Shown piece after piece: positions 1,798-49,794 of a stretch of DNA of 64,000 bases (within the stretch, counting starts at the first letter, position 1; each line of letters begins with the position of its first letter). Source of the stretch: Escherichia phage RB16; sequence record NC_014467.1. The stretch is one strand, 5' to 3'. The translations under genes were made by a program, and so were the position numbers. The notes under the pieces were generated by a model that had not been told where the DNA came from, made no database searches, and saw only the letters and a list, made by a program, of their open reading frames with translations.

Positions 1798-2311
1798 ATC
1801 ACATGGAGGTGGAAACCGAACAATTGATGATGAAATTTCTTCAATAAATGAACTACTTCCTATGTTGGATGTTGATGTTGTATTAGGAAAGATATACTGG
1901 AAAAACTCACCTCGTAAGAGCGTCCCTGCTGGAACTGAAGCAGGGAGTAAGACAAAACATGGTTACGTTGCTATCGGGTATAAAAAGACGTATTATAGAC
2001 GACATCGAATAATATTTTACGTCGCTAATGGTTATCTTCCTCTCGTAGTAGATCACAAACACGGTGTTGAATCTGGTGATGGAATAGATAACCTGCAAGA
2101 CATCACGCAACAACAAAACTCCGTTAAAATGAGAATGAGTAGAAGGAATTCTTCTGGGTTTAGAGGGGTTTCCTTTCACCAAAAATCAGGAAAATGGCAA
2201 TCATGTATTGTGTATAATAGAAAAACAATATATCTTGGTTTGTATGAAACACCAGAACTTGCACATAGTGCATATACAGACAAGCGAAAAGAATTATTTG
2301 GTGAAATATGA
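1781..2311 (+). CDS. HNH-AP2 homing endonuclease (paralog 1 of 6)
   Basis: HNH_3-type motif (VDHKHGV...DNLQ...QQQN) followed by AP2-like DNA-binding domain (SGFRGVSF...GKWQ...LGLY). Confidence 0.8.
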   Translation: MKLKTKSHGGGNRTIDDEISSINELLPMLDVDVVLGKIYWKNSPRKSVPAGTEAGSKTKHGYVAIGYKKTYYRRHRIIFYVANGYLPLVVDHKHGVESGDGIDNLQDITQQQNSVKMRMSRRNSSGFRGVSFHQKSGKWQSCIVYNRKTIYLGLYETPELAHSAYTDKRKELFGEI

Positions 2312-4005
2312 AATTAAATTTCCGTAAAATTAAGTATCAAAACATCTTATCAGTGGGTAATACCCCGATCGAACTTGAATTCGATACTGCAAAGAAAACC
2401 CTGATCACGGGTAAAAATGGTGGTGGTAAATCCACACTGATCGAAGCGTTGACGTATGCTCTTTTTGGTAAATCATTTCGTGATTTAAAAGTCGGGCAAC
2501 TGGTAAACAGTGTCAACAAAAAGAAATGTCTGGTTGAACTGGATATTGAATACGGGAAAGATTCGTACAAAGTCGTTCGCGGACAAAAGCCGAAAGTATT
2601 CGAGATCTGGAAAAACGGTGATAAGTTAGCAGAAGATTCAGCAGCGGGTGATTATCAATCTCAGCTTGAATCCATGCTCAATATTAACCTGGTTGGATTC
2701 AAACAGGTAATCGTGTTGGGTACTGCTGGCTATACTCCATTCATGGAACTGAAAACACCGGATCGCCGTAAACTGGTTGAAGACCTGTTGTCGCTATCGG
2801 TTATCAGTGAAATGGATAAGCTGAACAAATCATATGTCCGTGGTGTTAATCAGCAGTTGGATACCCTGTCAATGCAGGTTAACCACATCCAGCAGCAGAT
2901 CGCTACACACCAGCGCTTCATTGATGAACAGCGAGCTAAAGCGAACCAGAACAACGCACGATACAAAGAGATCTACGATAGCCACGTTGAAACCGCTAAG
3001 AACATCAAAGCACAGCTTATGCAGTTGCAAGCGGAGATCGCAGAAACGGTGATCACTGGTGCAGACCGAACGGAAGATATAAACAAACTCCGTGATGGCT
3101 ATACGCGCCTCTCTATGACTGTAGAACAGTTTAAAAAGCTGGAAGTGATGTATCAGAAAGGTGGTGAGTGTCCGGCCTGTAAACAGGCGATTAAGCCCAC
3201 TCCTGAACGCATGGAAGAGATCGCAAACAACATCAAAGCGGGTACGCAACGATTAACGCTGATCAAAACCAAACAGGACGAGTTGCAAGGCATTATGAAC
3301 GAGTTGCTTCAACAGCAACGCGCACTGAATGCTATGAAAACGAAATACGAAGCCCTGAAAGGTACGCTGCAAAATGAAGTTGCCAACGCTAAACGCGCAC
3401 AAGCGATCATGGAACAGGCAAGCGCGGAAGTTGTTATTGATGAAGAACCTGTTAAGCAGTTACAACAACAGGAAGCAGATCTGAACGATAAACGTCAAGG
3501 ATATGTGAAAGAAAAATATATCCGTGGTATCGTTACAGATATGTTAAAAGATTCTGGTGTAAAAGCCAGCATCGTAAAACGTTATATCCCGTACTTCAAC
3601 AAGCAGATCGCATACTATCTGGATCTGTTGGGCGCTGACTACCAGTTCACTTTAGATGATGAATTCAACGAATCAATCAAATCACTGGGGCGCGATGATT
3701 TTAGTTACGCATCATTTAGCCAGGGTGAACGCGCACGAATCAACCTTGCGTTGCTTATGACCTGGCGTGATGTAACAAGTAAAGTTTCTGGTGTTGATTT
3801 ATCGCTTCTGGTACTAGATGAAATCTTTGATGGTGCAATGGATAAAGAAGGTGGATTTGCAGTCAGAGCATTACTGGATGATATTGAAGGTAATGTTATT
3901 GTAATCAGTCATCAGGATTTAGATCCACAAGAATTTCATCGACATATTGTTATGTCTAAAGTAGGGAGATTCACCAAATGCAAGATAGTAAACAATGATT
4001 ACTAA
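2308..4005 (+). CDS. 46: recombination endonuclease subunit gp46 (Rad50/SbcC-like ATPase)
   Basis: 565 aa; Walker A GKNGGGKST; long coiled-coil middle; aligns by eye to T4 gp46 N-terminus. Confidence 0.9.
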   Translation: MKLNFRKIKYQNILSVGNTPIELEFDTAKKTLITGKNGGGKSTLIEALTYALFGKSFRDLKVGQLVNSVNKKKCLVELDIEYGKDSYKVVRGQKPKVFEIWKNGDKLAEDSAAGDYQSQLESMLNINLVGFKQVIVLGTAGYTPFMELKTPDRRKLVEDLLSLSVISEMDKLNKSYVRGVNQQLDTLSMQVNHIQQQIATHQRFIDEQRAKANQNNARYKEIYDSHVETAKNIKAQLMQLQAEIAETVITGADRTEDINKLRDGYTRLSMTVEQFKKLEVMYQKGGECPACKQAIKPTPERMEEIANNIKAGTQRLTLIKTKQDELQGIMNELLQQQRALNAMKTKYEALKGTLQNEVANAKRAQAIMEQASAEVVIDEEPVKQLQQQEADLNDKRQGYVKEKYIRGIVTDMLKDSGVKASIVKRYIPYFNKQIAYYLDLLGADYQFTLDDEFNESIKSLGRDDFSYASFSQGERARINLALLMTWRDVTSKVSGVDLSLLVLDEIFDGAMDKEGGFAVRALLDDIEGNVIVISHQDLDPQEFHRHIVMSKVGRFTKCKIVNNDY

Positions 4006-35919: not shown

Positions 35920-38139
35920 TTACAGTTTAACTTCTTTTTCTTCCAGGACGATTTCGCAATCGAATGTTGCACCTTCCCAGAACTTATGCGGGATAATGTC
36001 AGTCGCTTTAACCGATACTTTGGTTTCTTCAAAATCCATATCCGCAAACCAGGCGTGGCCTACAACGATACCGTACATTACACGGCTCAGGCGCTTGTTC
36101 AGTGCGCGTACTTCGTTGATGGTTGCCTTTGTTTCTTTATCAAGGTACTCGATTACCTTATCCTTGTCAAGCGCTGCGAGTTCAGCTTTAACAGCATCGT
36201 AAGCCCACAGGATGATCAGGTCGCCGTTGTTCAGTTTCTTCTTACCTTCGGCACGTTTCGCAACGGTTGCCGCTACAGCAGGAAGGGAGGAAACACCCTT
36301 GATTTTCAGATTCAGTTCTTTCGACATATAAACATCAGTCGAATCGGTACGGGTTACTTTCGGGGAGAATCCATAATCACGAATACCCTGTTCAGATAAC
36401 CATTCACCAGCGGCTTCACCGTATTTCTGTTTCAGACCTTCGGCATTACGTAAACCGATCGCGTCGTCACGGAAGAACTTCATCACCTTCTGGCGACCTT
36501 TCAGGATTTCCAGACGGATAGAGTCGTTTACATACTCTTTACCGGAGATCCCGCGAGTCATCGCACGGTTAACCAGAGGCAGACTTGTAAAGTCAACCAG
36601 AACCGACATACGGTCTTCACCGATTTTTGCCAGCGGCTTGATGGTCAAACCAGAAGCGCGGAGGTTTTTCAGTGTCGGAATATCAGTTTCCAGAGGCAGA
36701 ACTTTAACGTTTACGATACCGTCTTTAACGATGGTAAAGTTACGCACCTGCTTAGTTTCGATCTGTTCAGGCAGTCCCAGTTCTTTCTGTTTGCTTTCTG
36801 GGATAGTTACGTAACCTTGCAGATCCGTGTTAATGGAAATGTTAGGACGTGAACTGTTGCCGACCAGATGTTTAACCGATACTTTGGTTGTTGTCTGGGT
36901 AAATTTCGGTGTCCAGATTTCGTGCGTTACCATTTGTGCGGCTAATGCTTTGCGTTCTTCCGGTGTTTTCGCATTTGCGATCTGTTCTGACAGTTGATCC
37001 AGAGTATCATCTTCTTTCTGTACTGTCTGACGGCCTGTACGGTTGTACGCCCAGTGTTCAGAAGACAGGTCGATCACTGTGTCAGTTTCTGCCAGCAGTT
37101 CTAGAGCATCAACCAGAGTGAATGCGTTTTCGTCTGGAACCATGTTGTAATCAACACCTTCAATCAGACGTTTACCCGCATCAACTACCGCTTCCGCGAT
37201 CAGGTCTTTGGCGTTGGAATAATCCTGCTTAGTAAAGCAGTTATCGTAAGCCTTAATCAGACGAACGTCACCGACTTTTTTCAGCACTTTCCATGCCAGA
37301 TCAGGGTTCATGGTATGAAGTGCATGATACAGAACCACGTACAGAACCTGTTCACCTTCCATCGTAGCTGGATCAAATCCGTCGATATCGTTGATTGCGT
37401 TATCACCCAGCGCCCAGATGTTTTTGATATGCTCAGGAACCAGCACAACACCGTTTGCAGCGTTCAGGACATACACGCGCCCTTCGTCAATGTAGATCGC
37501 ATGGGTAGCATCACCTACTTTAACTTCAATACGCGCTGATGTTTGAGCGGTAATGATTTCAGCAAATGCTGGCTCGTATGCGTCGAAACCTTCAACGAAT
37601 TTATGCAATGCGTTGGTTGCTTCTGCCATTTTTTCCAGCAGAGGACGGTTAACATAGTAACCATATTCCAGGAACGCAATGCTGTTAAACGTCAGAGGGA
37701 GAACCGCACACGCTTTCAGGATGTCATCGGTACGCCAGCAGTTATCATAACCATCCGTCAGGAAGATCAGGCTGTTCAGGTTGCCGTTTTCGGATTGCAG
37801 GTCAGTTGCAATCTCAGCAGCCAGATTCAGAGGTTCGACGAAACCAGTACAACCAGTAGGTTTCAGATAACGGTCGATCGCGGTGCAGATATTGGTCAGA
37901 TCCGATACGTTGCTAACCTTCTCACCACGGAACACAGTACCGTAATCGCCTTTGCTGGAGAAGTACAGGATCGAAACAGTATCATCCTGTTTAACCAGGC
38001 TTGCCAGATTCGCTTTCAGGTGCTTACGAATTTTCGGCAATTCGCTGTACATTGAACCGGAAACGTCGCAAACGAAAACGTGGTTGGTCGGAGTCGGTTT
38101 AGATACTGCATTTTTGAATTCGATATTTGTAATTGACAT
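35920..38139 (-). CDS. von Willebrand factor A (vWA) domain protein, 739 aa
   Basis: N-terminal MIDAS motif DVSGSM with downstream FLTDGYDN; C-terminal ~500 aa unassigned. Confidence 0.7.
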   Translation of the reverse strand: MSITNIEFKNAVSKPTPTNHVFVCDVSGSMYSELPKIRKHLKANLASLVKQDDTVSILYFSSKGDYGTVFRGEKVSNVSDLTNICTAIDRYLKPTGCTGFVEPLNLAAEIATDLQSENGNLNSLIFLTDGYDNCWRTDDILKACAVLPLTFNSIAFLEYGYYVNRPLLEKMAEATNALHKFVEGFDAYEPAFAEIITAQTSARIEVKVGDATHAIYIDEGRVYVLNAANGVVLVPEHIKNIWALGDNAINDIDGFDPATMEGEQVLYVVLYHALHTMNPDLAWKVLKKVGDVRLIKAYDNCFTKQDYSNAKDLIAEAVVDAGKRLIEGVDYNMVPDENAFTLVDALELLAETDTVIDLSSEHWAYNRTGRQTVQKEDDTLDQLSEQIANAKTPEERKALAAQMVTHEIWTPKFTQTTTKVSVKHLVGNSSRPNISINTDLQGYVTIPESKQKELGLPEQIETKQVRNFTIVKDGIVNVKVLPLETDIPTLKNLRASGLTIKPLAKIGEDRMSVLVDFTSLPLVNRAMTRGISGKEYVNDSIRLEILKGRQKVMKFFRDDAIGLRNAEGLKQKYGEAAGEWLSEQGIRDYGFSPKVTRTDSTDVYMSKELNLKIKGVSSLPAVAATVAKRAEGKKKLNNGDLIILWAYDAVKAELAALDKDKVIEYLDKETKATINEVRALNKRLSRVMYGIVVGHAWFADMDFEETKVSVKATDIIPHKFWEGATFDCEIVLEEKEVKL

Positions 38140-40758: not shown

Positions 40759-41013
40759 TCAAAAAATATGCGTAAGGTTTCCGGCGTTGTTCGGGTATTC
40801 CACGTAATCGCCACGGAATATGTTTAGATCGGAATCGAACTTAAATCCTTGACCCCTGACATCCTCATGACGGGAAATATAAGAACATCCGTACTTTTGT
40901 AGATCTTCCATGTACATTTCAGTGATGCGTTTTGCTTTGTCCATTCCCCGACCTTCAAATCGGGAACGGCGATAATGTTCCAGCAAAAACGCATATAACT
41001 TTTCGTATGTCAC
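40759..41013 (-). CDS. hypothetical protein (84 aa)
   Basis: ORF track. Confidence 0.4.
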   Translation of the reverse strand: MTYEKLYAFLLEHYRRSRFEGRGMDKAKRITEMYMEDLQKYGCSYISRHEDVRGQGFKFDSDLNIFRGDYVEYPNNAGNLTHIF

Positions 41014-41918
41014 AGAACTTTCCTTATCTGTTTGGCTATTGCCTCGATAACTGGCACGGAAACGGAGTTACCCGCTTGCTTGTATGCTTGTTTTTTACTC
41101 GATGGAATAATAAACGAATCTGGGAAGCCTTGCAAGCGAAAACATTCACGCGGGGTTAATCGTCGTGGGTTCTTCCCGTCCTGCAACACCAGACATTGAA
41201 CGCCGTCCTTGTAATATTGCGCGGTGATGGTTCCTGTGTGCGTAGAATCGGCTGTGACGGCCTGATAACCAAAGCCCTTACCGTTTGCCTTATTTCGTTC
41301 CTTACGCTCTCTAAAGCCTTTCCACGCGTTATCTGATAGAGTGTACGAATCATCAGCATCTTCGAGGATATCACCTACGCGCGTAGGGGTACGCGGGGGA
41401 ACCGGAAACGAAAAGAATACATCATCCAGGAAGCAGACAATGAACACGCGTTCACGTCGCTGGGGTAGTCCGAAATCTTTTGTATTCAGTCGCTGATAGA
41501 ATACGTTGTATCCTTCGGCCTCAAGAAGCCCGTAAATCGTTTTAAACGTCTTTCCCTTGTCATGGGTTAGCAATTCAGGCACGTTCTCAAAGAACAGCAC
41601 ACGGGGCTTTTTAGCGCGTATGATGCGGAGGATTTCAAAGAACACCGTACCGCGAGCATCATCAAATCCCAGTTTCAATCCGGCTTTACTGAATGCCTGA
41701 CACGGGAACCCAGCCAACAGGATATCGTGATCGGGTACTTTGTTTTCATCAATGGCAAACAGATCACCCTGTAGGTTATCGTCGCCCCAGTTTTCAATAT
41801 AGGTTTGCTGTGCGTGTTTGTCGATCTCAGACGTTAAAAGGCATTCGACCCCGCCGAATGCATTATCAAATCCAAATCGAACTCCACCAACGCCAGCGCA
41901 GAGGTCAATTATTTTCAT
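41010..41918 (-). CDS. DNA (cytosine-5)-methyltransferase
   Basis: Motif I DLCAGVGG, motif IV GFPCQAFS, ENV motif. Confidence 0.85.
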   Translation of the reverse strand: MKIIDLCAGVGGVRFGFDNAFGGVECLLTSEIDKHAQQTYIENWGDDNLQGDLFAIDENKVPDHDILLAGFPCQAFSKAGLKLGFDDARGTVFFEILRIIRAKKPRVLFFENVPELLTHDKGKTFKTIYGLLEAEGYNVFYQRLNTKDFGLPQRRERVFIVCFLDDVFFSFPVPPRTPTRVGDILEDADDSYTLSDNAWKGFRERKERNKANGKGFGYQAVTADSTHTGTITAQYYKDGVQCLVLQDGKNPRRLTPRECFRLQGFPDSFIIPSSKKQAYKQAGNSVSVPVIEAIAKQIRKVL

Positions 41919-42178: not shown

Positions 42179-42447
42179 CAGTTGCTACCCCACGTATAAA
42201 AATCAAATTTTTCGGTTTGCGCTTCTTCAACACGGATCACGTAATCACTGGTATCGTATTTGTCAGCGGTACGGAATTCAACCGAATACACACGAGCAAA
42301 CACAGCATAAAGCGCTTCGCGGATTTTCTCTGCGATCTCTTCATCGGTCTTATCGATATGCAACGTAAGCATATCGGAAACCACATCTTCAACGCGACGA
42401 ACATCACGCTTATCAATGTAACCAGTGTATAAATTTACTTCTTTCAT
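42178..42447 (-). CDS. hypothetical protein (89 aa)
   Basis: ORF track. Confidence 0.4.
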   Translation of the reverse strand: MKEVNLYTGYIDKRDVRRVEDVVSDMLTLHIDKTDEEIAEKIREALYAVFARVYSVEFRTADKYDTSDYVIRVEEAQTEKFDFYTWGSN

Positions 42448-43442
42448 TTGTAATACCTCATAACATGATCTTTGTACACGAGTTCAATGAAGTTATCCCA
42501 GAACTCGCGATCGACTTCTTTCGGATAGGTAGAGATTGCAGCCAGGCGTTCAACTTCACCCATCACTTCCTCCAGTTTTTCCTGTACTTCGGCAAACGGG
42601 ACATTACCAGCTTTAACCGATTTCAACAGGTCACTCTCAGGAAGAGGATAAACGATATCACCGTGCTTGTAAATCTGTACCAACTGCATACCGCCGCGCA
42701 ATGCGTGACTTAATGCTTTCCAATCGATCCCATTGTTGGCTTCTGCTTGTCGTGCGCGTTCGCCATATTCATCCCAGAGCTTATACACGGATTTCTTCAT
42801 TTCCGCTACGGTGATTGTGAACTGGAATTTACGACCCAGAACTTCGTAGAAATTCTGCATACCACCTTTTTCGCTATAATGCAAAATAGAACGACAGAAT
42901 TCATTGGTCGGTAGTTGGTCTTTGATGTCGCCAACTTTGGTATTAACCAACGATGAAGCGTTTTCATCGTAATGTGCATTATCGGTGTCTTGCAACACGT
43001 CATACACTTCACGCAATGCAGCCAGGCGTGAACCCTTAACGCCATATTTCGCGGCTTGCTTACGAACATAACCGAACAGACCAGTTAACTCCGTGGTGTA
43101 GAAACGCCAGCGGTTAGCGCGGATATACTGCCAGATTTCAGAGTTAGCGATCAGCTTGCTATCATCAGCATGAAGCATATCGAGCGCTACGGTATCACCA
43201 TCACACGCAAGGCTGATGAACTTAGGCAGACTATACAACTGACGGTCTACGTCATCAACGGTGTTTTTAGAGTTCTTATCGCCCGTGCTCGTGTCGATGG
43301 TCTTTGGGGCTTTACCCAGTAAGATATCGCGTGGATGCGGGAGAAAGATCCCTTTATAATCTTTGTCGCTTGTCGGGGTGTTCAGTCCGTACAAAAAACT
43401 TCCAAACACCATTTCAACTACGGTTTTCATAAAATTCTCCAA
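42444..43442 (-). CDS. Pol-beta-superfamily nucleotidyltransferase (GS-x10-DxD), 332 aa
   Basis: N-terminal FGSFLYGLNTPTSDKDYKGIF matches the minimal nucleotidyltransferase signature. Confidence 0.6.
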   Translation of the reverse strand: MENFMKTVVEMVFGSFLYGLNTPTSDKDYKGIFLPHPRDILLGKAPKTIDTSTGDKNSKNTVDDVDRQLYSLPKFISLACDGDTVALDMLHADDSKLIANSEIWQYIRANRWRFYTTELTGLFGYVRKQAAKYGVKGSRLAALREVYDVLQDTDNAHYDENASSLVNTKVGDIKDQLPTNEFCRSILHYSEKGGMQNFYEVLGRKFQFTITVAEMKKSVYKLWDEYGERARQAEANNGIDWKALSHALRGGMQLVQIYKHGDIVYPLPESDLLKSVKAGNVPFAEVQEKLEEVMGEVERLAAISTYPKEVDREFWDNFIELVYKDHVMRYYK

Positions 43443-43947
43443 ATAATTCTTTCGCTTTCGCTTCGTATACTACACTAGCTTCTTCTGGCGTGGCAAACCT
43501 ACCCAAAAACATATCTTTGCGGTTATGTTTGATTTTAGCTATCCATTTATCACGAGCATTGTCGAAATAGACCCCCTTATAGCCAGATTTATTGGTTTTC
43601 GGAGTTTTTGCTTTCATCGTGTTCTGCTGTTGCGTTACTTCCTGTAGGTTATCTTTGCCATTACCGTTCCCGACCCCGCGTTTATGGTCAACGATAGCGG
43701 GAAGATACCCGTTAGCAACATAGAAAACAATTCGATGAACATAGTACGACTTGCCGTTATATCCTATTGCAGTGTATCCAAATGAATTCGTACTACCCGC
43801 AATACTTCCTACTGTAGCCCTACTACCCCTGTGAACTTTCCAATAACACAACCCTGTGTCAACATCAACCCGAAGAATTTCTAACAATGAATCTATTTCG
43901 CTGCGTTCATCTTCTAGCGTTCTTTTCCACCGTCCGTGGCATTTCAT
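43414..43947 (-). CDS. HNH-AP2 homing endonuclease (paralog 5)
   Basis: HNH motif (VDHKRGVGNGNGKDNL...QQQN) + AP2-like (YKGVYFDNARDKWIAKI). Confidence 0.8.
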   Translation of the reverse strand: MKCHGRWKRTLEDERSEIDSLLEILRVDVDTGLCYWKVHRGSRATVGSIAGSTNSFGYTAIGYNGKSYYVHRIVFYVANGYLPAIVDHKRGVGNGNGKDNLQEVTQQQNTMKAKTPKTNKSGYKGVYFDNARDKWIAKIKHNRKDMFLGRFATPEEASVVYEAKAKELFGEFYENRS

Positions 43948-44336
43948 TCTTCAATTCCCAAGATAGCAGCAATTGCTTTCAGGTTTTCGGTAGTGATTTC
44001 GGGAACATTCACAGTGTATGAATTACCGAACATAGGCTGAATTTTAGCACACAATTCTTTACGATACATCATTTCTTTATAATGTTCTTCACTGCGATAG
44101 ACAGTGTACCCCATCCATCCATCGGTTCGTCCAAATGTGCGGTCAATCTTTTCATTGGTGTACGATTTCGGATCGAAGGTTTCAGAAGTTGACGCATAGA
44201 TGTATTTTCTTGCTACTTTATGCACATACAGTGTGCGCGGTTTTCTGTTCTGTCTTGTATCAGAACGAATACCGCAATCATAAAGGGTATCGCCCACTTT
44301 CACATCAGATAAATTTCTCATTTCATTTTCCAACAC
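43944..44336 (-). CDS. hypothetical protein (130 aa)
   Basis: ORF track. Confidence 0.45.
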   Translation of the reverse strand: MLENEMRNLSDVKVGDTLYDCGIRSDTRQNRKPRTLYVHKVARKYIYASTSETFDPKSYTNEKIDRTFGRTDGWMGYTVYRSEEHYKEMMYRKELCAKIQPMFGNSYTVNVPEITTENLKAIAAILGIEE

Positions 44337-45774: not shown

Positions 45775-46836
45775 TCAAGCAACCCCCGTAAAGGCGTTTA
45801 CTATCTGGAAATGATCATCGAAGAATTCCCCTTGTCGTTGTACGACCTCATGTAAGGGCATCCAGAACGCCTCTGCTGCATCGTCAGCGCCTCCCATAAT
45901 GCGGGGCAGACTTCCATCATTGTTAGGTTCTAACTTGATGTATTGCGCTACAGTCGGTTTTGAGAAGTGTACGGAACGCTTCGGATGATCAAACAACATC
46001 GAATTGCGAATTGAACCACGGATAACCTTTTCAGGAACCTTGATCCGAACCTCTTCGAGCAATTCACGGATCGCACAATCCAGGAATGTTTCGTTTGCGT
46101 TTTTGTGTCCACCTGGCAGGGCCAACGCGCCTTTACCCGGTGCAAACTTACGACGAATTACCAGAAGGTGATTGTTACACACAACCACGCTATCACCCGT
46201 ACAACAGTTTAACGCGTCGGGGTATGGGTACGCTTTGAACTTCTCCAGTTCATCTTCCCATTTCTCGAACTCGTAGTACAAGCGCCAGAACGTATCGGTC
46301 ATCATCCATCCGTTAAGAGAACCCACGACAGCAGCAGGAACATAACGGGCGATCTTCTCGTCCCATCCATTTTTATGTAAAAATATGGTTGGACGCAGGT
46401 CGGTAGCAGATAAATCTTTGCCGTCAACCTTAACCGGATCAACCGGAACATGAGTCCATCCGAACGCTTTAAGCCAGTACGAATCAGCATCTTTTTCGTA
46501 ACCGTAGATCGCGATGTTATCGCCTTTAGTTTCGTCGATTGCTGTACGAACAGAGGTTTTCCATTTTTCTTCATTGTAAAGGTAATCTGGAATCGGTTTG
46601 AATTGCACACGGGACACATCTTCATATTTGAACTCAGACAGTAACCAGCTTGTAATCATACGTTCCCGTTCGGTTGCTGTTAGCGGGTTTAAAACGTTAG
46701 GGTAAGCATAAGCGGAACCCAGGAGGATATAAACGGCCTTCGACTCTTCAAGTGCTTTACGCACCATTGCCGCATGACCATTATGGAAGGGTTGGAATCT
46801 GCCAATTACGACAGCTTTATCAAATTTGTATTTCAT
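45775..46836 (-). CDS. bifunctional NMN adenylyltransferase / Nudix hydrolase (NadM/NatV-like)
   Basis: N-terminal HxGH motif (GRFQPFHNGH); C-terminal Nudix box (GGHKNANETFLDCAIRELLEEVRI). Confidence 0.8.
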   Translation of the reverse strand: MKYKFDKAVVIGRFQPFHNGHAAMVRKALEESKAVYILLGSAYAYPNVLNPLTATERERMITSWLLSEFKYEDVSRVQFKPIPDYLYNEEKWKTSVRTAIDETKGDNIAIYGYEKDADSYWLKAFGWTHVPVDPVKVDGKDLSATDLRPTIFLHKNGWDEKIARYVPAAVVGSLNGWMMTDTFWRLYYEFEKWEDELEKFKAYPYPDALNCCTGDSVVVCNNHLLVIRRKFAPGKGALALPGGHKNANETFLDCAIRELLEEVRIKVPEKVIRGSIRNSMLFDHPKRSVHFSKPTVAQYIKLEPNNDGSLPRIMGGADDAAEAFWMPLHEVVQRQGEFFDDHFQIVNAFTGVA

Positions 46837-46861
46837 AACGTGCTCCACGTTTAAAGGGTAA

Positions 46862-46960
46862 TCATAAAACAGACGCAATAATCAATACACCAAGCAAACC
46901 GCCAATAAAGCCGAAGAATAGCGAAATGAAGATAGATAAGATGATCTGTTTTATGTTCAT
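46862..46960 (-). CDS. small hydrophobic peptide (32 aa), candidate membrane micro-protein
   Basis: Hand-translated MNIKQIILSIFISLFFGFIGGLLGVLIIASVL between SPFH and NMNAT genes; below ORF-track cut-off. Confidence 0.3.
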   Translation of the reverse strand: MNIKQIILSIFISLFFGFIGGLLGVLIIASVL

Positions 46961-46981
46961 TATAGTATTCTCGTTTTAAGA

Positions 46982-47010
46982 ATCAAGCCCCCAAGGAAAG
47001 GGGGCTTTAA
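46982..47010 (-). terminator. hairpin GCCCCC...GGGGGC
   Basis: Read directly downstream of SPFH gene. Confidence 0.4.
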
Positions 47011-47014
47011 AATC

Positions 47015-47941
47015 TTATTTACGAGAATCGAAAATCACTTTACCAGCGTAATCTGAACCCATGACAGTCTGAGGCACATCACCTTTATAACGGGTAGAGT
47101 AGTTCATCTGTACATCCAGTTCTTTCCAGCGGATCATTTCTGGTGTGATGGTACGTTGCAACACGGCGTTCGCTTCTGCTTCTTTCTTCGCTGCATACAG
47201 TTTAGCGTCTGCATCACGTTCGTTGGCGATCGCATCGTTTTCACGCGCCTGACGATTTGCTTCCGCTTGTTTTACCTGTTGCTGTGAAGTCTGTTCGACT
47301 TTTGCCAGTTCCGCACGAGCGGCGTTAACCTGTTCTTCACGAATTTTCGTGTTAGTTACCTGTTCCATGATAACATCCGGCAGGGTGATATCCTGCAAGA
47401 ATACCTGTTTCACGGTGTAACCGTAAGGACGCGCATACTCTTCGACTTCCTGTTGAATTGCGGTCTGCAACTGGTTCTGGATCTTAGCATCAAACAGATC
47501 CTGTGCTTTTGGAACCGATTTGCCGAACTCGCGAACGGTTGACAGCAGTTTTTCGGTTACATACTTATCCAGTGCCTGTTCCTGGTCTCCCGCGTTGATG
47601 CGGTTGATAGGCGCTTTGTTACCGTCAAATTGCAGCATAACGGTCATATCAACAGTGGATTTAAACTTATCCTGTGAAGGAACCTGCAATTTATCGAACT
47701 TCTTCGCAATGTCTTTCGTGCTGAAAGTATCGAAATCAGCCAGCGGGTTTACGATATGGAAACCAGGCAGTACAGGTTTCGGAGAAACCTTACCCATGAA
47801 GGTCTGAGTTTTGACCGTGCCGTCCTGTACTACTGTAAAGGAGTTCGGAACCAGCCACAGTGCGGCTACTACGCCCAGAGCGATCAGAGTGGTTTTCTTC
47901 GGGTTGTTCAGGATAGTATTCATATTCATAGTATGTCTCAT
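47015..47941 (-). CDS. SPFH/Band-7 (prohibitin/HflK-like) membrane protein
   Basis: N-terminal TM helix, SPFH-like core, Ala/Glu/Gln-rich coiled coil. Confidence 0.65.
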   Translation of the reverse strand: MRHTMNMNTILNNPKKTTLIALGVVAALWLVPNSFTVVQDGTVKTQTFMGKVSPKPVLPGFHIVNPLADFDTFSTKDIAKKFDKLQVPSQDKFKSTVDMTVMLQFDGNKAPINRINAGDQEQALDKYVTEKLLSTVREFGKSVPKAQDLFDAKIQNQLQTAIQQEVEEYARPYGYTVKQVFLQDITLPDVIMEQVTNTKIREEQVNAARAELAKVEQTSQQQVKQAEANRQARENDAIANERDADAKLYAAKKEAEANAVLQRTITPEMIRWKELDVQMNYSTRYKGDVPQTVMGSDYAGKVIFDSRK

Positions 47942-48003
47942 TTAAGTTTATGTTTCAATTCGATAGTTATTCTATCATCACCATTCAGCTTGTCAAATAC
48001 TTT

Positions 48004-48387
48004 TTAAGAAAGTTTTGTCAGCTTGTAAATCGTTTGATAGCACAAGCCTTTTATCTCGTCCATGATGTTCTTCAATGAACTATCAACTGCGTCGTAGATT
48101 TCTTCGGCTTCGGTGGCTATTTTACGGAGATACGCTACCGTGTCAAGCACATTTTCAACTTTTAATACGGGTTTGTACCTTCCGGTAATGCCTATATGGA
48201 TTTCGGTGAACTTATCGACCAGATCCTGCATATCTTCGTAAAACCCTTCATATGCTTTATGCTGTGAGTATGAACCAGTCGCGAAGTGTGCGCTGTGCAT
48301 ATACGTAACAGACATTAGGCAAGTGCCGATAAAGGCATCGATCTTACTTGTGGTATCGCGTTCTGTAATTTCGTTAAACGTCTGCAT
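48004..48387 (-). CDS. hypothetical protein (127 aa)
   Basis: ORF track. Confidence 0.45.
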   Translation of the reverse strand: MQTFNEITERDTTSKIDAFIGTCLMSVTYMHSAHFATGSYSQHKAYEGFYEDMQDLVDKFTEIHIGITGRYKPVLKVENVLDTVAYLRKIATEAEEIYDAVDSSLKNIMDEIKGLCYQTIYKLTKLS

Positions 48388-48397
48388 CTTTCATCCC

Positions 48398-48679
48398 TTA
48401 TGAACGATGAATAGAAGCGAATTCAGTTGCTACCCTAAGCCCTAAGCGTTTGCATTCAGGTTCAGATTTACACTGTTTCTGCTGCCATTTTCGTTCCATA
48501 TAATTATAGAAAAGTTCACTTGTATTTACGCTGGGAGGGATGGTGTCTAGATACACCTGTAGCGCTGCATTGATGTAGTAGTCGAATTCTTTCGGTACGA
48601 CTGAATCATCTGCGTGTGATGCTGGAGACAAGATTAACAAACCAAACATCAGCGCTTTGGATATGCGTTTAATGTTCAT
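48398..48679 (-). CDS. secreted/periplasmic small protein (~93 aa)
   Basis: Signal peptide MNIKRISKALMFGLLILSPASHA; start trimmed to second Met. Confidence 0.5.
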   Translation of the reverse strand: MNIKRISKALMFGLLILSPASHADDSVVPKEFDYYINAALQVYLDTIPPSVNTSELFYNYMERKWQQKQCKSEPECKRLGLRVATEFASIHRS

Positions 48680-48786
48680 AAGCAATTTCTCTACGTGCTT
48701 ACGGATCACCAATAGACCCGTTCCTGTATATATTTATAGCAAAAAAGGGGCAATAAACCCCTTATGTTAAATCAGTATAAAAATAA

Positions 48787-49209: not shown

Positions 49210-49794
49210 TTAACAGTTCACACCGACTTTATCAAGCACTTTTTCATGATAATGTTTCCGGCATAACGAAACATATTTGTCTTCGGCTCCGATTTCGACT
49301 TGCGCCCCTTCTGTTACGAAGTTGCATTGTGCGTCGATACGGGCGACCGTAGTTGCTTTACGTCCACAGTGACACATTCCCCGCAGTTCGCGGATCTCGT
49401 CAGCCCATGCAAGCAACCAGTAAGAACCCTCGAACAGATTCAACTGAAAGTCGGTACGCAACCCGTAGCACATCACAGGAATTTCGAGTTCATCGACAAC
49501 ACGACACAGATCGAAAACGTTTTTCTTCGAGAGGAATTGCGCTTCATCAACGAAGATGCAAGAGATATTATTCTGGCGCTGGATATCCCAGAACAGATCC
49601 ATACTTGGTGCAATCAGTTCGCAATTTGCATTTAGCCCTACACGAGAAGAAACGGTGTGCGACGTGCGAGTGTCAAGCATAGGCTTGTAGATCACAACGT
49701 TCATACCGCGTTCTTTGTAGTTGTATGCGTCTGTTAACAGTCGCGCACTTTTACCAGCGTTCATTGATGCGTAGTGATAATACAGTTTAGCCAT
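49210..49794 (-). CDS. tk: thymidine kinase
   Basis: 194 aa; P-loop SMNAGKS; aligns by eye with T4 Tk (VDEAQF, YGLRTDF, CHCG...C..H zinc ribbon). Confidence 0.9.
   Translation of the reverse strand: MAKLYYHYASMNAGKSARLLTDAYNYKERGMNVVIYKPMLDTRTSHTVSSRVGLNANCELIAPSMDLFWDIQRQNNISCIFVDEAQFLSKKNVFDLCRVVDELEIPVMCYGLRTDFQLNLFEGSYWLLAWADEIRELRGMCHCGRKATTVARIDAQCNFVTEGAQVEIGAEDKYVSLCRKHYHEKVLDKVGVNC

Follow-up and report, generated by a model that had tools for sequence, protein, structure and literature searches.

We analysed a natV locus in a 64,000-nucleotide stretch of the Escherichia phage RB16 genome (NC_014467.1; hereafter the window, whose numbering is used for all coordinates unless a locus of another phage is named). 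The phage is a Pseudotevenvirus of the family Straboviridae, that is, an RB43-like phage of the T4 type. Three open reading frames (ORFs) follow one another on its minus strand: a gene for a 308-amino-acid (aa) SPFH/Band-7 membrane protein (47015..47941), a micro-ORF for a 32-aa single-helix membrane protein (46862..46960), and natV (45775..46836), which encodes a 353-aa protein with an N-terminal nicotinamide mononucleotide (NMN) adenylyltransferase (NMNAT) domain and a C-terminal Nudix ADP-ribose pyrophosphatase domain. An earlier note on this DNA had proposed these three ORFs in a common orientation, with the SPFH gene and the micro-ORF upstream of natV; all are present in that arrangement, with homology E-values far beyond chance. 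Across 45.7–48.0 kb, the window is 96.5% identical to Escherichia phage Lw1, of which about 31–95 kb corresponds to the window by position, and 88–93% identical to Citrobacter phage Miller and to RB43. Overall, 177 phage records matched this interval.

The natV reading frame starts at an ATG with GGAG 6 nt upstream. An alternative TTG start at 46878 was rejected, because it would make natV overlap the micro-ORF and has no counterpart of the conserved GGAG that precedes the ATG at 46836. The encoded protein matched the Pfam families CTP_transf_like (1.9e-8) and NUDIX (1.8e-14) and the PHROG family phrog_395 (1e-98), and it aligned end to end with the solved NadM-Nudix enzymes of Synechocystis (slr0787, 2qjo, 7e-55) and Francisella (2qjt/2r5w, 3e-45 for 2qjt), with which it shares the HxGH motif, the SxTxxR motif and the Nudix box. 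Specifically, the (H/T)xGH motif is present as HNGH (residues 18–21, 46774..46785), aligned with FHLGH in 2qjo and FHKGH in 2qjt, and the second ATP-binding motif, SxTxxR, as SATDLR (residues 143–148, 46393..46410), aligned with SSTAIR and NATEFR. The Nudix box, GX5EX7REUXEEXGU, reads GHKNANETFLDCAIRELLEEVRI (residues 243–265, 46042..46110) and carries R for the last G (...REL.EE.R), a substitution found identically in the Synechocystis enzyme. NatV homologues were detected in 435 phage records; among them, RB43 NatV (ORF138c) is a direct orthologue with 87% identity, and the NatV of a KVP40-type phage has the same two-domain architecture over its full length at 41% identity (E 4e-86). The two-domain NadM/NatV-type enzyme recognised in the earlier note is thus borne out by the Pfam, 2qjo/2qjt and KVP40-type matches. 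Judged by its sequence, natV encodes a complete NadM-Nudix enzyme (NMN adenylyltransferase/ADP-ribose pyrophosphatase) in which every motif is intact, and the two activities would be those of the characterised KVP40 homologue. Against the PADLOC models of defence proteins, NatV gave only a weak, Nudix-type match (6e-5).

The Nampt (nicotinamide phosphoribosyltransferase, NadV) and Nmnat of phage KVP40 together form the nicotinamide adenine dinucleotide (NAD+)-reconstitution pathway NARP2, which rebuilds NAD+ and overcomes NAD+-depleting defences (Osterman et al., bioRxiv 10.1101/2024.02.11.579819). This published work supports the link that the earlier note had drawn between such enzymes and escape from NAD-depleting defences. 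Among phages with a NARP2-type Nampt, 94% also encode an Nmnat (bioRxiv 10.1101/2024.02.11.579819). As the earlier note had found for NadV, the window ORFs scanned include no NadV, Prs, NadR or PnuC, and for the corresponding part of Lw1 the annotation likewise has no Nampt, Prs, NadR or PnuC gene. The note had proposed searching the rest of the genome for Nampt or phosphoribosyl pyrophosphate (PRPP) synthetase-like partners, and we made this search in the relatives. In Lw1, gp243 (148,589..150,022) is annotated as a nicotinamide phosphoribosyltransferase and scored 460 bits against NF006629 (cut-off 405); in RB43, a tblastn search with the annotated NadV of phage phi-pp2 located nadV at 150.9–152.2 kb with 50% identity. 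The closest relatives therefore carry Nampt and Nmnat in one genome, which is the defining feature of NARP2. The remaining Lw1 annotation includes an additional T4-type NudE and no phage Prs, NadR or PnuC, so a phage-encoded PRPP synthetase, NadR or PnuC was rejected for this phage group on the basis of that annotation and of the window ORFs scanned.

In both Lw1 and RB43, nadV lies about 70 kb from natV, outside the region equivalent to the window, so the pathway is split across the genome. Of the two options that the earlier note had left, a split pathway or the use of a host enzyme, it is the split that these relatives support. KVP40-type phages resemble the window’s relatives in this respect, as their natV and nadV are also far apart, with Nampt elsewhere in the genome and not beside Nmnat. 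They differ in that the window natV lies directly downstream of the SPFH gene and the micro-ORF, an arrangement absent from KVP40-type phages. The window NatV also represents a diverged lineage of enterobacterial phages relative to KVP40 NatV. KVP40 itself encodes an HflK-type (TIGR01933) SPFH protein, KVP40.0339 (locus L003, 1..828), beside baseplate genes and far from natV. In RB43, these components were catalogued early: Nolan et al. 2006 (PMC1524935) recorded ORF138c as NUDIX plus cytidylyltransferase, ORF139c as SPFH/Band 7 and ORF255w as NAPRTase, and called ORF138c and ORF255w orthologues of the KVP40 salvage pathway.

By analogy with KVP40, the N-terminal domain of NatV would join NMN and ATP to form NAD+, and the Nudix domain would split ADP-ribose into AMP and ribose-5-phosphate. 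NatV, the phage NadV (Nampt) and the host PRPP synthetase would jointly constitute NARP2, in which NAD+ is rebuilt from nicotinamide. Such a pathway would blunt NAD+-depleting defences, for example, type I Thoeris, DSR1/2, SIR2-HerA and SEFIR, and the same analogy suggests an anti-defence role in the window’s phage. A different purpose can be argued, namely that natV and nadV serve general phage metabolism, raising NAD+ for NAD-consuming phage or host reactions and clearing ADP-ribose, and not counter-defence. This would agree with the observation that NARP2 raises NAD+ even in defence-free cells (bioRxiv 10.1101/2024.02.11.579819), with the earlier genome paper, which viewed the pathway as nucleotide salvage (PMC1524935), and with the separate T4-type NudE that these phages also keep. 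However, expressed NARP2 overcame several NAD+-depleting systems (bioRxiv 10.1101/2024.02.11.579819), and the two roles are not exclusive. We regard a purely metabolic role as conceivable but rather unlikely.

The ribosome-binding region of natV may itself be a control element. A small stem-loop, ACGUG-GAG-CACGU (46838..46850, minus strand), was predicted by folding; it holds the Shine-Dalgarno GGAG (46843..46846), and the ATG lies one base past the stem. The stem-loop sequence is kept in loci with 68–100% NatV identity (L019, L020, L021 and L004 were among those examined), and the 19-nt initiation region is identical even where NatV is only 68% identical. Phage Mm5 shows a compensatory C-G to U-A change in the stem, and in Serratia phage 4S and a KVP40-like phage the GAG loop is retained on stems of other sequence. 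The element may act as a translational control site or, through its GGAG, as a RegB-type cleavage site. A known regulatory RNA in the leader of natV, such as an NAD+ riboswitch, was rejected, since no Rfam match came near a gathering score.

The protein encoded upstream, an orthologue of RB43ORF139c and of T5.080, belongs to the SPFH superfamily by its match to Pfam Band_7 (PF01145; 2.3e-15, 57.5 bits, gathering cut-off 23.6) and matched phrog_200 among the PHROGs (3e-79). Translation probably starts not at the first codon of the 308-aa frame but at the ATG at 47929 (304 aa), since a GAGA lies about 7 nt before this ATG and the majority of homologues have 304–305 aa and begin with MNLNT or MNMNT. 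An AlphaFold2 model (predicted local distance difference test score, pLDDT, 80) comprises a transmembrane (TM) helix (14–33), the SPFH domain (35–186), long helices (189–264, 76 residues, and 267–284) and C-terminal strands (293–305, low confidence). Foldseek searches with the model returned full-length matches to erlin, prohibitin, HflK/C, stomatin and QmcA at E-values of 1e-14 to 1e-10, with no subfamily foremost. The modelled protein thus shares fold and domain order (TM helix, SPFH domain, long helices, C-terminal strands) with HflK/C, QmcA-YbbJ, prohibitin, erlin and stomatin, but its sequence identity to solved SPFH proteins is only about 17%. The model has the architecture of the cage formers, with membrane anchor, SPFH domain, long helices and C-terminal strand, and the protein may oligomerise in the same manner. 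Lysines (KK) precede the TM helix, as in HflC; together with the positive-inside rule, this suggests that the SPFH domain faces the periplasm.

Several more specific identities were rejected. Assignment to the HflK/HflC or QmcA subfamily failed, as no NCBIfam model matched at E <= 0.01 and QmcA reached only 7e-6 by sequence. The lipoprotein label of phrog_200 does not apply, since the protein has no cysteine and hence no lipobox, and no PADLOC match marked it as a known defence protein. An SPFH-NfeD operon is not indicated either, as none of the neighbours scanned contains an NfeD domain. We found no published function for phage SPFH proteins.

The SPFH protein was considered unusual for a T4-like phage in the earlier note, a view that our searches do not support. 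A tblastn search located homologues in 721 phage records, with T5 and many Straboviridae among them, and SPFH ORFs were recorded in 2006 for RB43 as well as for 44RR and Aeh1 (Nolan et al. 2006, PMC1524935). RB43ORF139c is a direct orthologue with 97% identity; identity is 76–80% to homologues in T5-like Demerecviridae (T5.080), about 72% to that of Proteus phage J3S (Grimontviridae), 57–58% to those of Aeromonas T4-like phages and 24–39% to those of several Vibrio phages. The best 120 relatives in a large protein collection, where named or on long contigs, came from phages or phage-sized contigs, a few of them under bacterial names. The 72–80% identity across otherwise unrelated Straboviridae, Demerecviridae and Grimontviridae points to horizontal exchange combined with strong purifying selection. 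In the comparison of the window with phage PMBT1, the SPFH protein is better conserved than NatV (91% versus 74% identity). Had the SPFH and micro-protein ORFs lacked conservation, this would have spoken against the locus as the earlier note described it; they occur in 721 and 174 phage records, respectively.

Scanning and folding of the intergenic sequences revealed several transcription-type signals, all on the minus strand. Upstream of the SPFH gene lies a sigma-70-type promoter-like sequence, TTGACA-16-TAGAAT with an extended TG (47969..47996, 11/12 matches). Directly after the SPFH stop codon, a GC-rich hairpin, AAGCCCCC-TTTCCTT-GGGGGCTT, is followed by a T-rich tail and resembles a terminator (46985..47007). 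Hairpins with different stems occupy the same position in the metagenomic locus L015, in JC221 and Mm5, and in the T5-like phage DT571/2. A second promoter-like site, TTGATT-16-TATAAT (46959..46986, 10/12 matches), has a −10 hexamer (46964..46959) that overlaps the ATG of the micro-ORF (46960..46958). Its KP15-type copy is a perfect TTGACA-16-TATAAT; in JC221 and L015, the site is missing and the ORF is kept, with GAGA(A) about 6–9 nt upstream. If these predicted promoters and terminator act as their sequences suggest, the SPFH gene would be a moron-like unit, with its own promoter, gene and terminator, for an inner-membrane protein. The micro-peptide would be translated from transcripts that read through the SPFH hairpin, and natV would additionally be served by its own early promoter, the one whose −10 overlaps the micro-ORF ATG.

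This organisation bears on the proposal in the earlier note that the three genes form one NAD-metabolism unit. Against it stand the promoter-like site and terminator-like hairpin of the SPFH gene itself, the absence of any NAD gene within 10 kb of SPFH in about 30 of the T5-like loci sampled, and the position of NatV in other phages, where it is far from SPFH or has no SPFH gene adjacent. To examine the association more broadly, we ran NatV, NadR-like, PnuC, NadV, Namat and Adps queries against 57 SPFH loci, most of which included 10 kb of flanking sequence. In enterobacterial T4-like phages, NatV lies at +0.18 to +0.76 kb from SPFH; in Aeromonas T4-like phages, it lies at +4.9 to +5.8 kb, with NadV also present at +9.8 kb in one locus. 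The T5-like phage GreteKellenberger (Bas26) carries SPFH 2 kb upstream of a NadR-like/PnuC pair; this pair is the NARP3 pathway (published for Bas30_86/87; Sci Adv 2026, PMC13464706). Three Epseptimavirus T5-like loci have NARP3 at +0.27 to +2.4 kb. Two phages of about 91 kb have an Adps-like/Namat-like pair of the NARP1 type at −5.3 to −8 kb, and a phage of about 90 kb has such a pair at +1.9 kb; Pfam confirmed the Pribosyltran(_N) and NAPRTase/NAMPT_N domains in these pairs. The NARP3- and NARP1-type neighbourhoods are those of loci L024 (13959..18649), L055 and L070, and of L058–L060, respectively. NARP3, like NatV, is a phage NMNAT-based means of rebuilding NAD+, and in its T5-like carriers it lies 0.3–2.4 kb downstream of the same SPFH gene. 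It differs from NatV in having an RNK domain in place of Nudix, in using imported nicotinamide riboside and in having a transporter partner; the window, unlike NARP3 loci, has no PnuC or NadR among the ORFs scanned.

A recurrent neighbourhood of SPFH with NARP1-, NARP2- and NARP3-type genes in three phage families is suggestive. One reading would be that the SPFH protein, alone or together with the micro-protein, has an accessory function in phage NAD+ reconstitution or in counter-defence generally, so that the locus is a real module. A membrane cage might protect the membrane or its energisation when NAD+ collapses, might counter the membrane-related or energetic effects of NAD+-depleting or membrane-targeting abortive infection, or might bind NAD-derived nucleotides. 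Apart from the presence of the same SPFH clade within 0.2–8 kb of NatV, NARP3 and NARP1-type genes in three families, this reading draws on a Fisher-combined proximity of p = 0.002–0.006 under a uniform null, on the stronger conservation of SPFH than of NatV between the window and PMBT1, and on the vault protein, in which NAD+/ADP binds between SPFH domains (PMC12280208). If accessory genes are taken to occupy only one-third or one-fifth of the genome, p rises to 0.04–0.15, and the test is rough and post hoc, with lineages that are not fully independent. The about 30 T5-like loci and five other lineages show no NAD gene within 10 kb of SPFH in searches with the NAD-gene queries, and the SPFH and NatV genes are far apart in Ah1/Aeh1-type phages. 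Vault NAD+ binding depends on a vault-specific loop (PMC12280208), and its transfer to the window SPFH protein was therefore rejected. An SPFH domain that faces the periplasm could not meet cytoplasmic NAD+, and the gene has promoter-like and terminator-like signals of its own. Finally, the slot downstream of the SPFH terminator holds varied cargo (the micro-peptide, a 218-aa signal-peptide protein, T5.076 or NARP3), which fits an insertion hot spot, and the recurrent neighbourhood may reflect only such a shared hot spot. We found no paper that links phage SPFH proteins to NAD+ or defence. We therefore consider an accessory role of SPFH improbable; the recurrence keeps a weak version of the single NAD-metabolism locus alive. 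In Pantoea phage Phynn, a protein annotated as “ADP ribose binding protein” (L073, 9702..10142) is encoded 2 kb upstream of SPFH; its Macro match is weak (E 0.0019, below the gathering score).

The micro-ORF (MNIKQIILSIFISLFFGFIGGLLGVLIIASVL) matched no family in Pfam, PHROGs, NCBIfam or PADLOC. Its predicted product has a mean hydropathy of 2.1, a glycine-rich core of the GxxxG type and an invariant ASVL end. In DNA searches, the 99-nt ORF was full length and ungapped in 173 of the 174 matching phage records, all of the RB43 or KP15 type, and it is annotated in only about one-third of the records listed; phages with an annotated copy include Olmo and Phynn. Among 1.84 billion representative proteins, the peptide forms one cluster, with NCBI entries from Klebsiella phages named “hypothetical protein”. 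No ORF number lies between RB43ORF138c and ORF139c, so the micro-ORF was not called in 2006 (PMC1524935). Relative to the KP15-type copy, the 17 substitutions are distributed over codon positions as [6,0,11], with 10 synonymous and five conservative changes; the distributions are [10,2,16] against JC221 and [17,9,18] against L015. The diverged copies have 33 codons in JC221 and 36 in L015, and the annotated Phynn gene PHYNN_195 also encodes 36 aa; with lengths of 32, 33 and 36 codons, all insertions and deletions are in frame. The JC221 and L015 copies keep the M-x-(x)-KQ start, the glycine-rich GxxxG-type core and the ASVL end.

Such conservation and coding-type substitutions indicate that the 32-codon ORF is very probably a real, lineage-specific membrane-peptide gene. 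The contrary reading is that the ORF is not a gene and that the region is only a 5′ leader of about 115 nt on a natV mRNA from the overlapping promoter, possibly with a regulatory RNA structure. With the −10 element overlapping the ATG, transcripts made from this promoter would not contain the start codon; the Shine-Dalgarno is weak (GAGAA, 9 nt upstream), and a 191-nt stretch folds better than shuffled sequence (z = −3.1). This reading leaves unexplained the near-invariance of codon position 2 and the in-frame indels, as well as the retention of the start, stop, KQ motif and ASVL end in JC221, Phynn and L015, though the overlapping promoter is missing there, and no meaningful Rfam family match accompanies it; we judge it very improbable.

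Two functional assignments for the micro-protein were rejected. It is not an obligate SPFH partner, since no copy follows the SPFH gene of T5-like DT571/2, Proteus J3S or Aeromonas UP87, and at 32 aa it is too short for the OB fold of an NfeD analogue. Other small genes occur at corresponding places in other phages. In Mm5, a gene whose 218-aa product has a signal peptide and a C-terminus resembling that of outer-membrane proteins (L020, 1782..2438) lies between SPFH and natV, is flanked by two GC hairpins and looks like a cassette insertion. Aeromonas T4-like phages carry an 80-aa TM2-domain-like small membrane ORF directly upstream of natV (L018, ~2254..2496) and, directly downstream of SPFH, a 151-aa protein whose N-terminus carries a type IV pilin-like methylation motif (PF07963, 3e-9; L008, 8969..9424). 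Both the TM2 and the pilin-like methylation domain types were recorded for phage 44RR in 2006 (PMC1524935).

Taken together, we consider it likely that natV and SPFH belong to the early accessory-gene region of this RB43-like phage, that natV is the NARP2 Nmnat, and that the three neighbouring genes are at least partly separate transcription units. A number of points weigh against this explanation. The NadV of the window’s phage is deduced from relatives that are 87–97% identical in NatV. Unlike the bacterial NadM-Nudix enzymes, the window NatV is phage-borne and falls below the NCBIfam equivalog cut-offs (PRK05379 models; best score 259 versus 397 bits); its best NCBIfam matches are all bifunctional NMNAT/Nudix equivalogs, and the low score marks it as a diverged member and not as a different fold. 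For NARP2, the phenotype has been demonstrated solely in B. subtilis expressing the KVP40 genes, and the KVP40 NARP2 operon was toxic in E. coli (bioRxiv 10.1101/2024.02.11.579819). The promoters and terminator are consensus matches only, with eight promoter-like matches in the region against 7.5 in shuffled sequence, and the recurrent SPFH/NAD-gene neighbourhood may mean that the genes are less independent than proposed.

The surroundings of the locus were also inspected. Upstream of the SPFH gene lie rI.-1 (DUF5856; 48004..48387), the rI antiholin gene (48398..48712) and tk (49210..49794), and the gene order rI, rI.-1, SPFH, X, natV is common to the window, JC221, Mm5 and Phynn. A phage ProQ C-terminal-like protein (PF24203, 6e-17) is encoded 1.4 kb beyond natV (43944..44336, minus strand); a ProQ/FinO-family protein also lies between SPFH and the NARP1-type pair in locus L060 (11120..11824), a recurrence that may be coincidence. 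A 177-aa ORF with HNH and AP2 domains, resembling a homing endonuclease (43414..43947, minus strand), sits between an nrdC.11-type nucleotidyltransferase and the next gene. As Lw1 gp127 is directly followed by gp128 with no gene between them, this ORF is probably a mobile insertion in the window’s phage. Other accessory genes of the same arm, all on the minus strand, encode a 739-aa VWA-domain protein (35920..38139), a C5 cytosine methylase (41010..41918), an RlaP-type RNA-repair nucleotidyltransferase (42444..43442), a PIN-PhoH protein (53252..54655) and a SPASM-domain protein (58403..59674), whose Lw1 counterpart is annotated as a radical SAM protein. Several of these plausibly have anti-restriction or repair functions.

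Because the enzyme, its partner and the SPFH protein were catalogued for RB43 in 2006 (PMC1524935) and NARP2 was explained in 2024, the central finding is already known: in a phage group that has been sequenced extensively, the locus represents a known component of NARP2, beside a common phage SPFH gene and a real, often unannotated membrane-peptide gene. Its implications lie in annotation and in the neighbouring genes. Under the PHROG labels “cytidyltransferase” and “lipoprotein”, a NARP2 enzyme and an SPFH scaffold go unrecognised, a point of relevance for predicting phage escape from Thoeris-, DSR- or SIR2-type defences. The membrane micro-protein is conserved in about 174 sequenced phages of Klebsiella, Enterobacter, Cronobacter, Citrobacter and E. 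coli, many of which are candidates for therapy. Lastly, the repeated occurrence of a single, strongly conserved SPFH gene next to three distinct pathways of NAD+ rebuilding offers a cheap, testable lead to phage SPFH function. If the accessory role that we hold improbable were nonetheless true, the T5.080-type SPFH protein, possibly with the 32-aa peptide here, would be a hitherto unrecognised companion of phage NAD+-reconstitution pathways.

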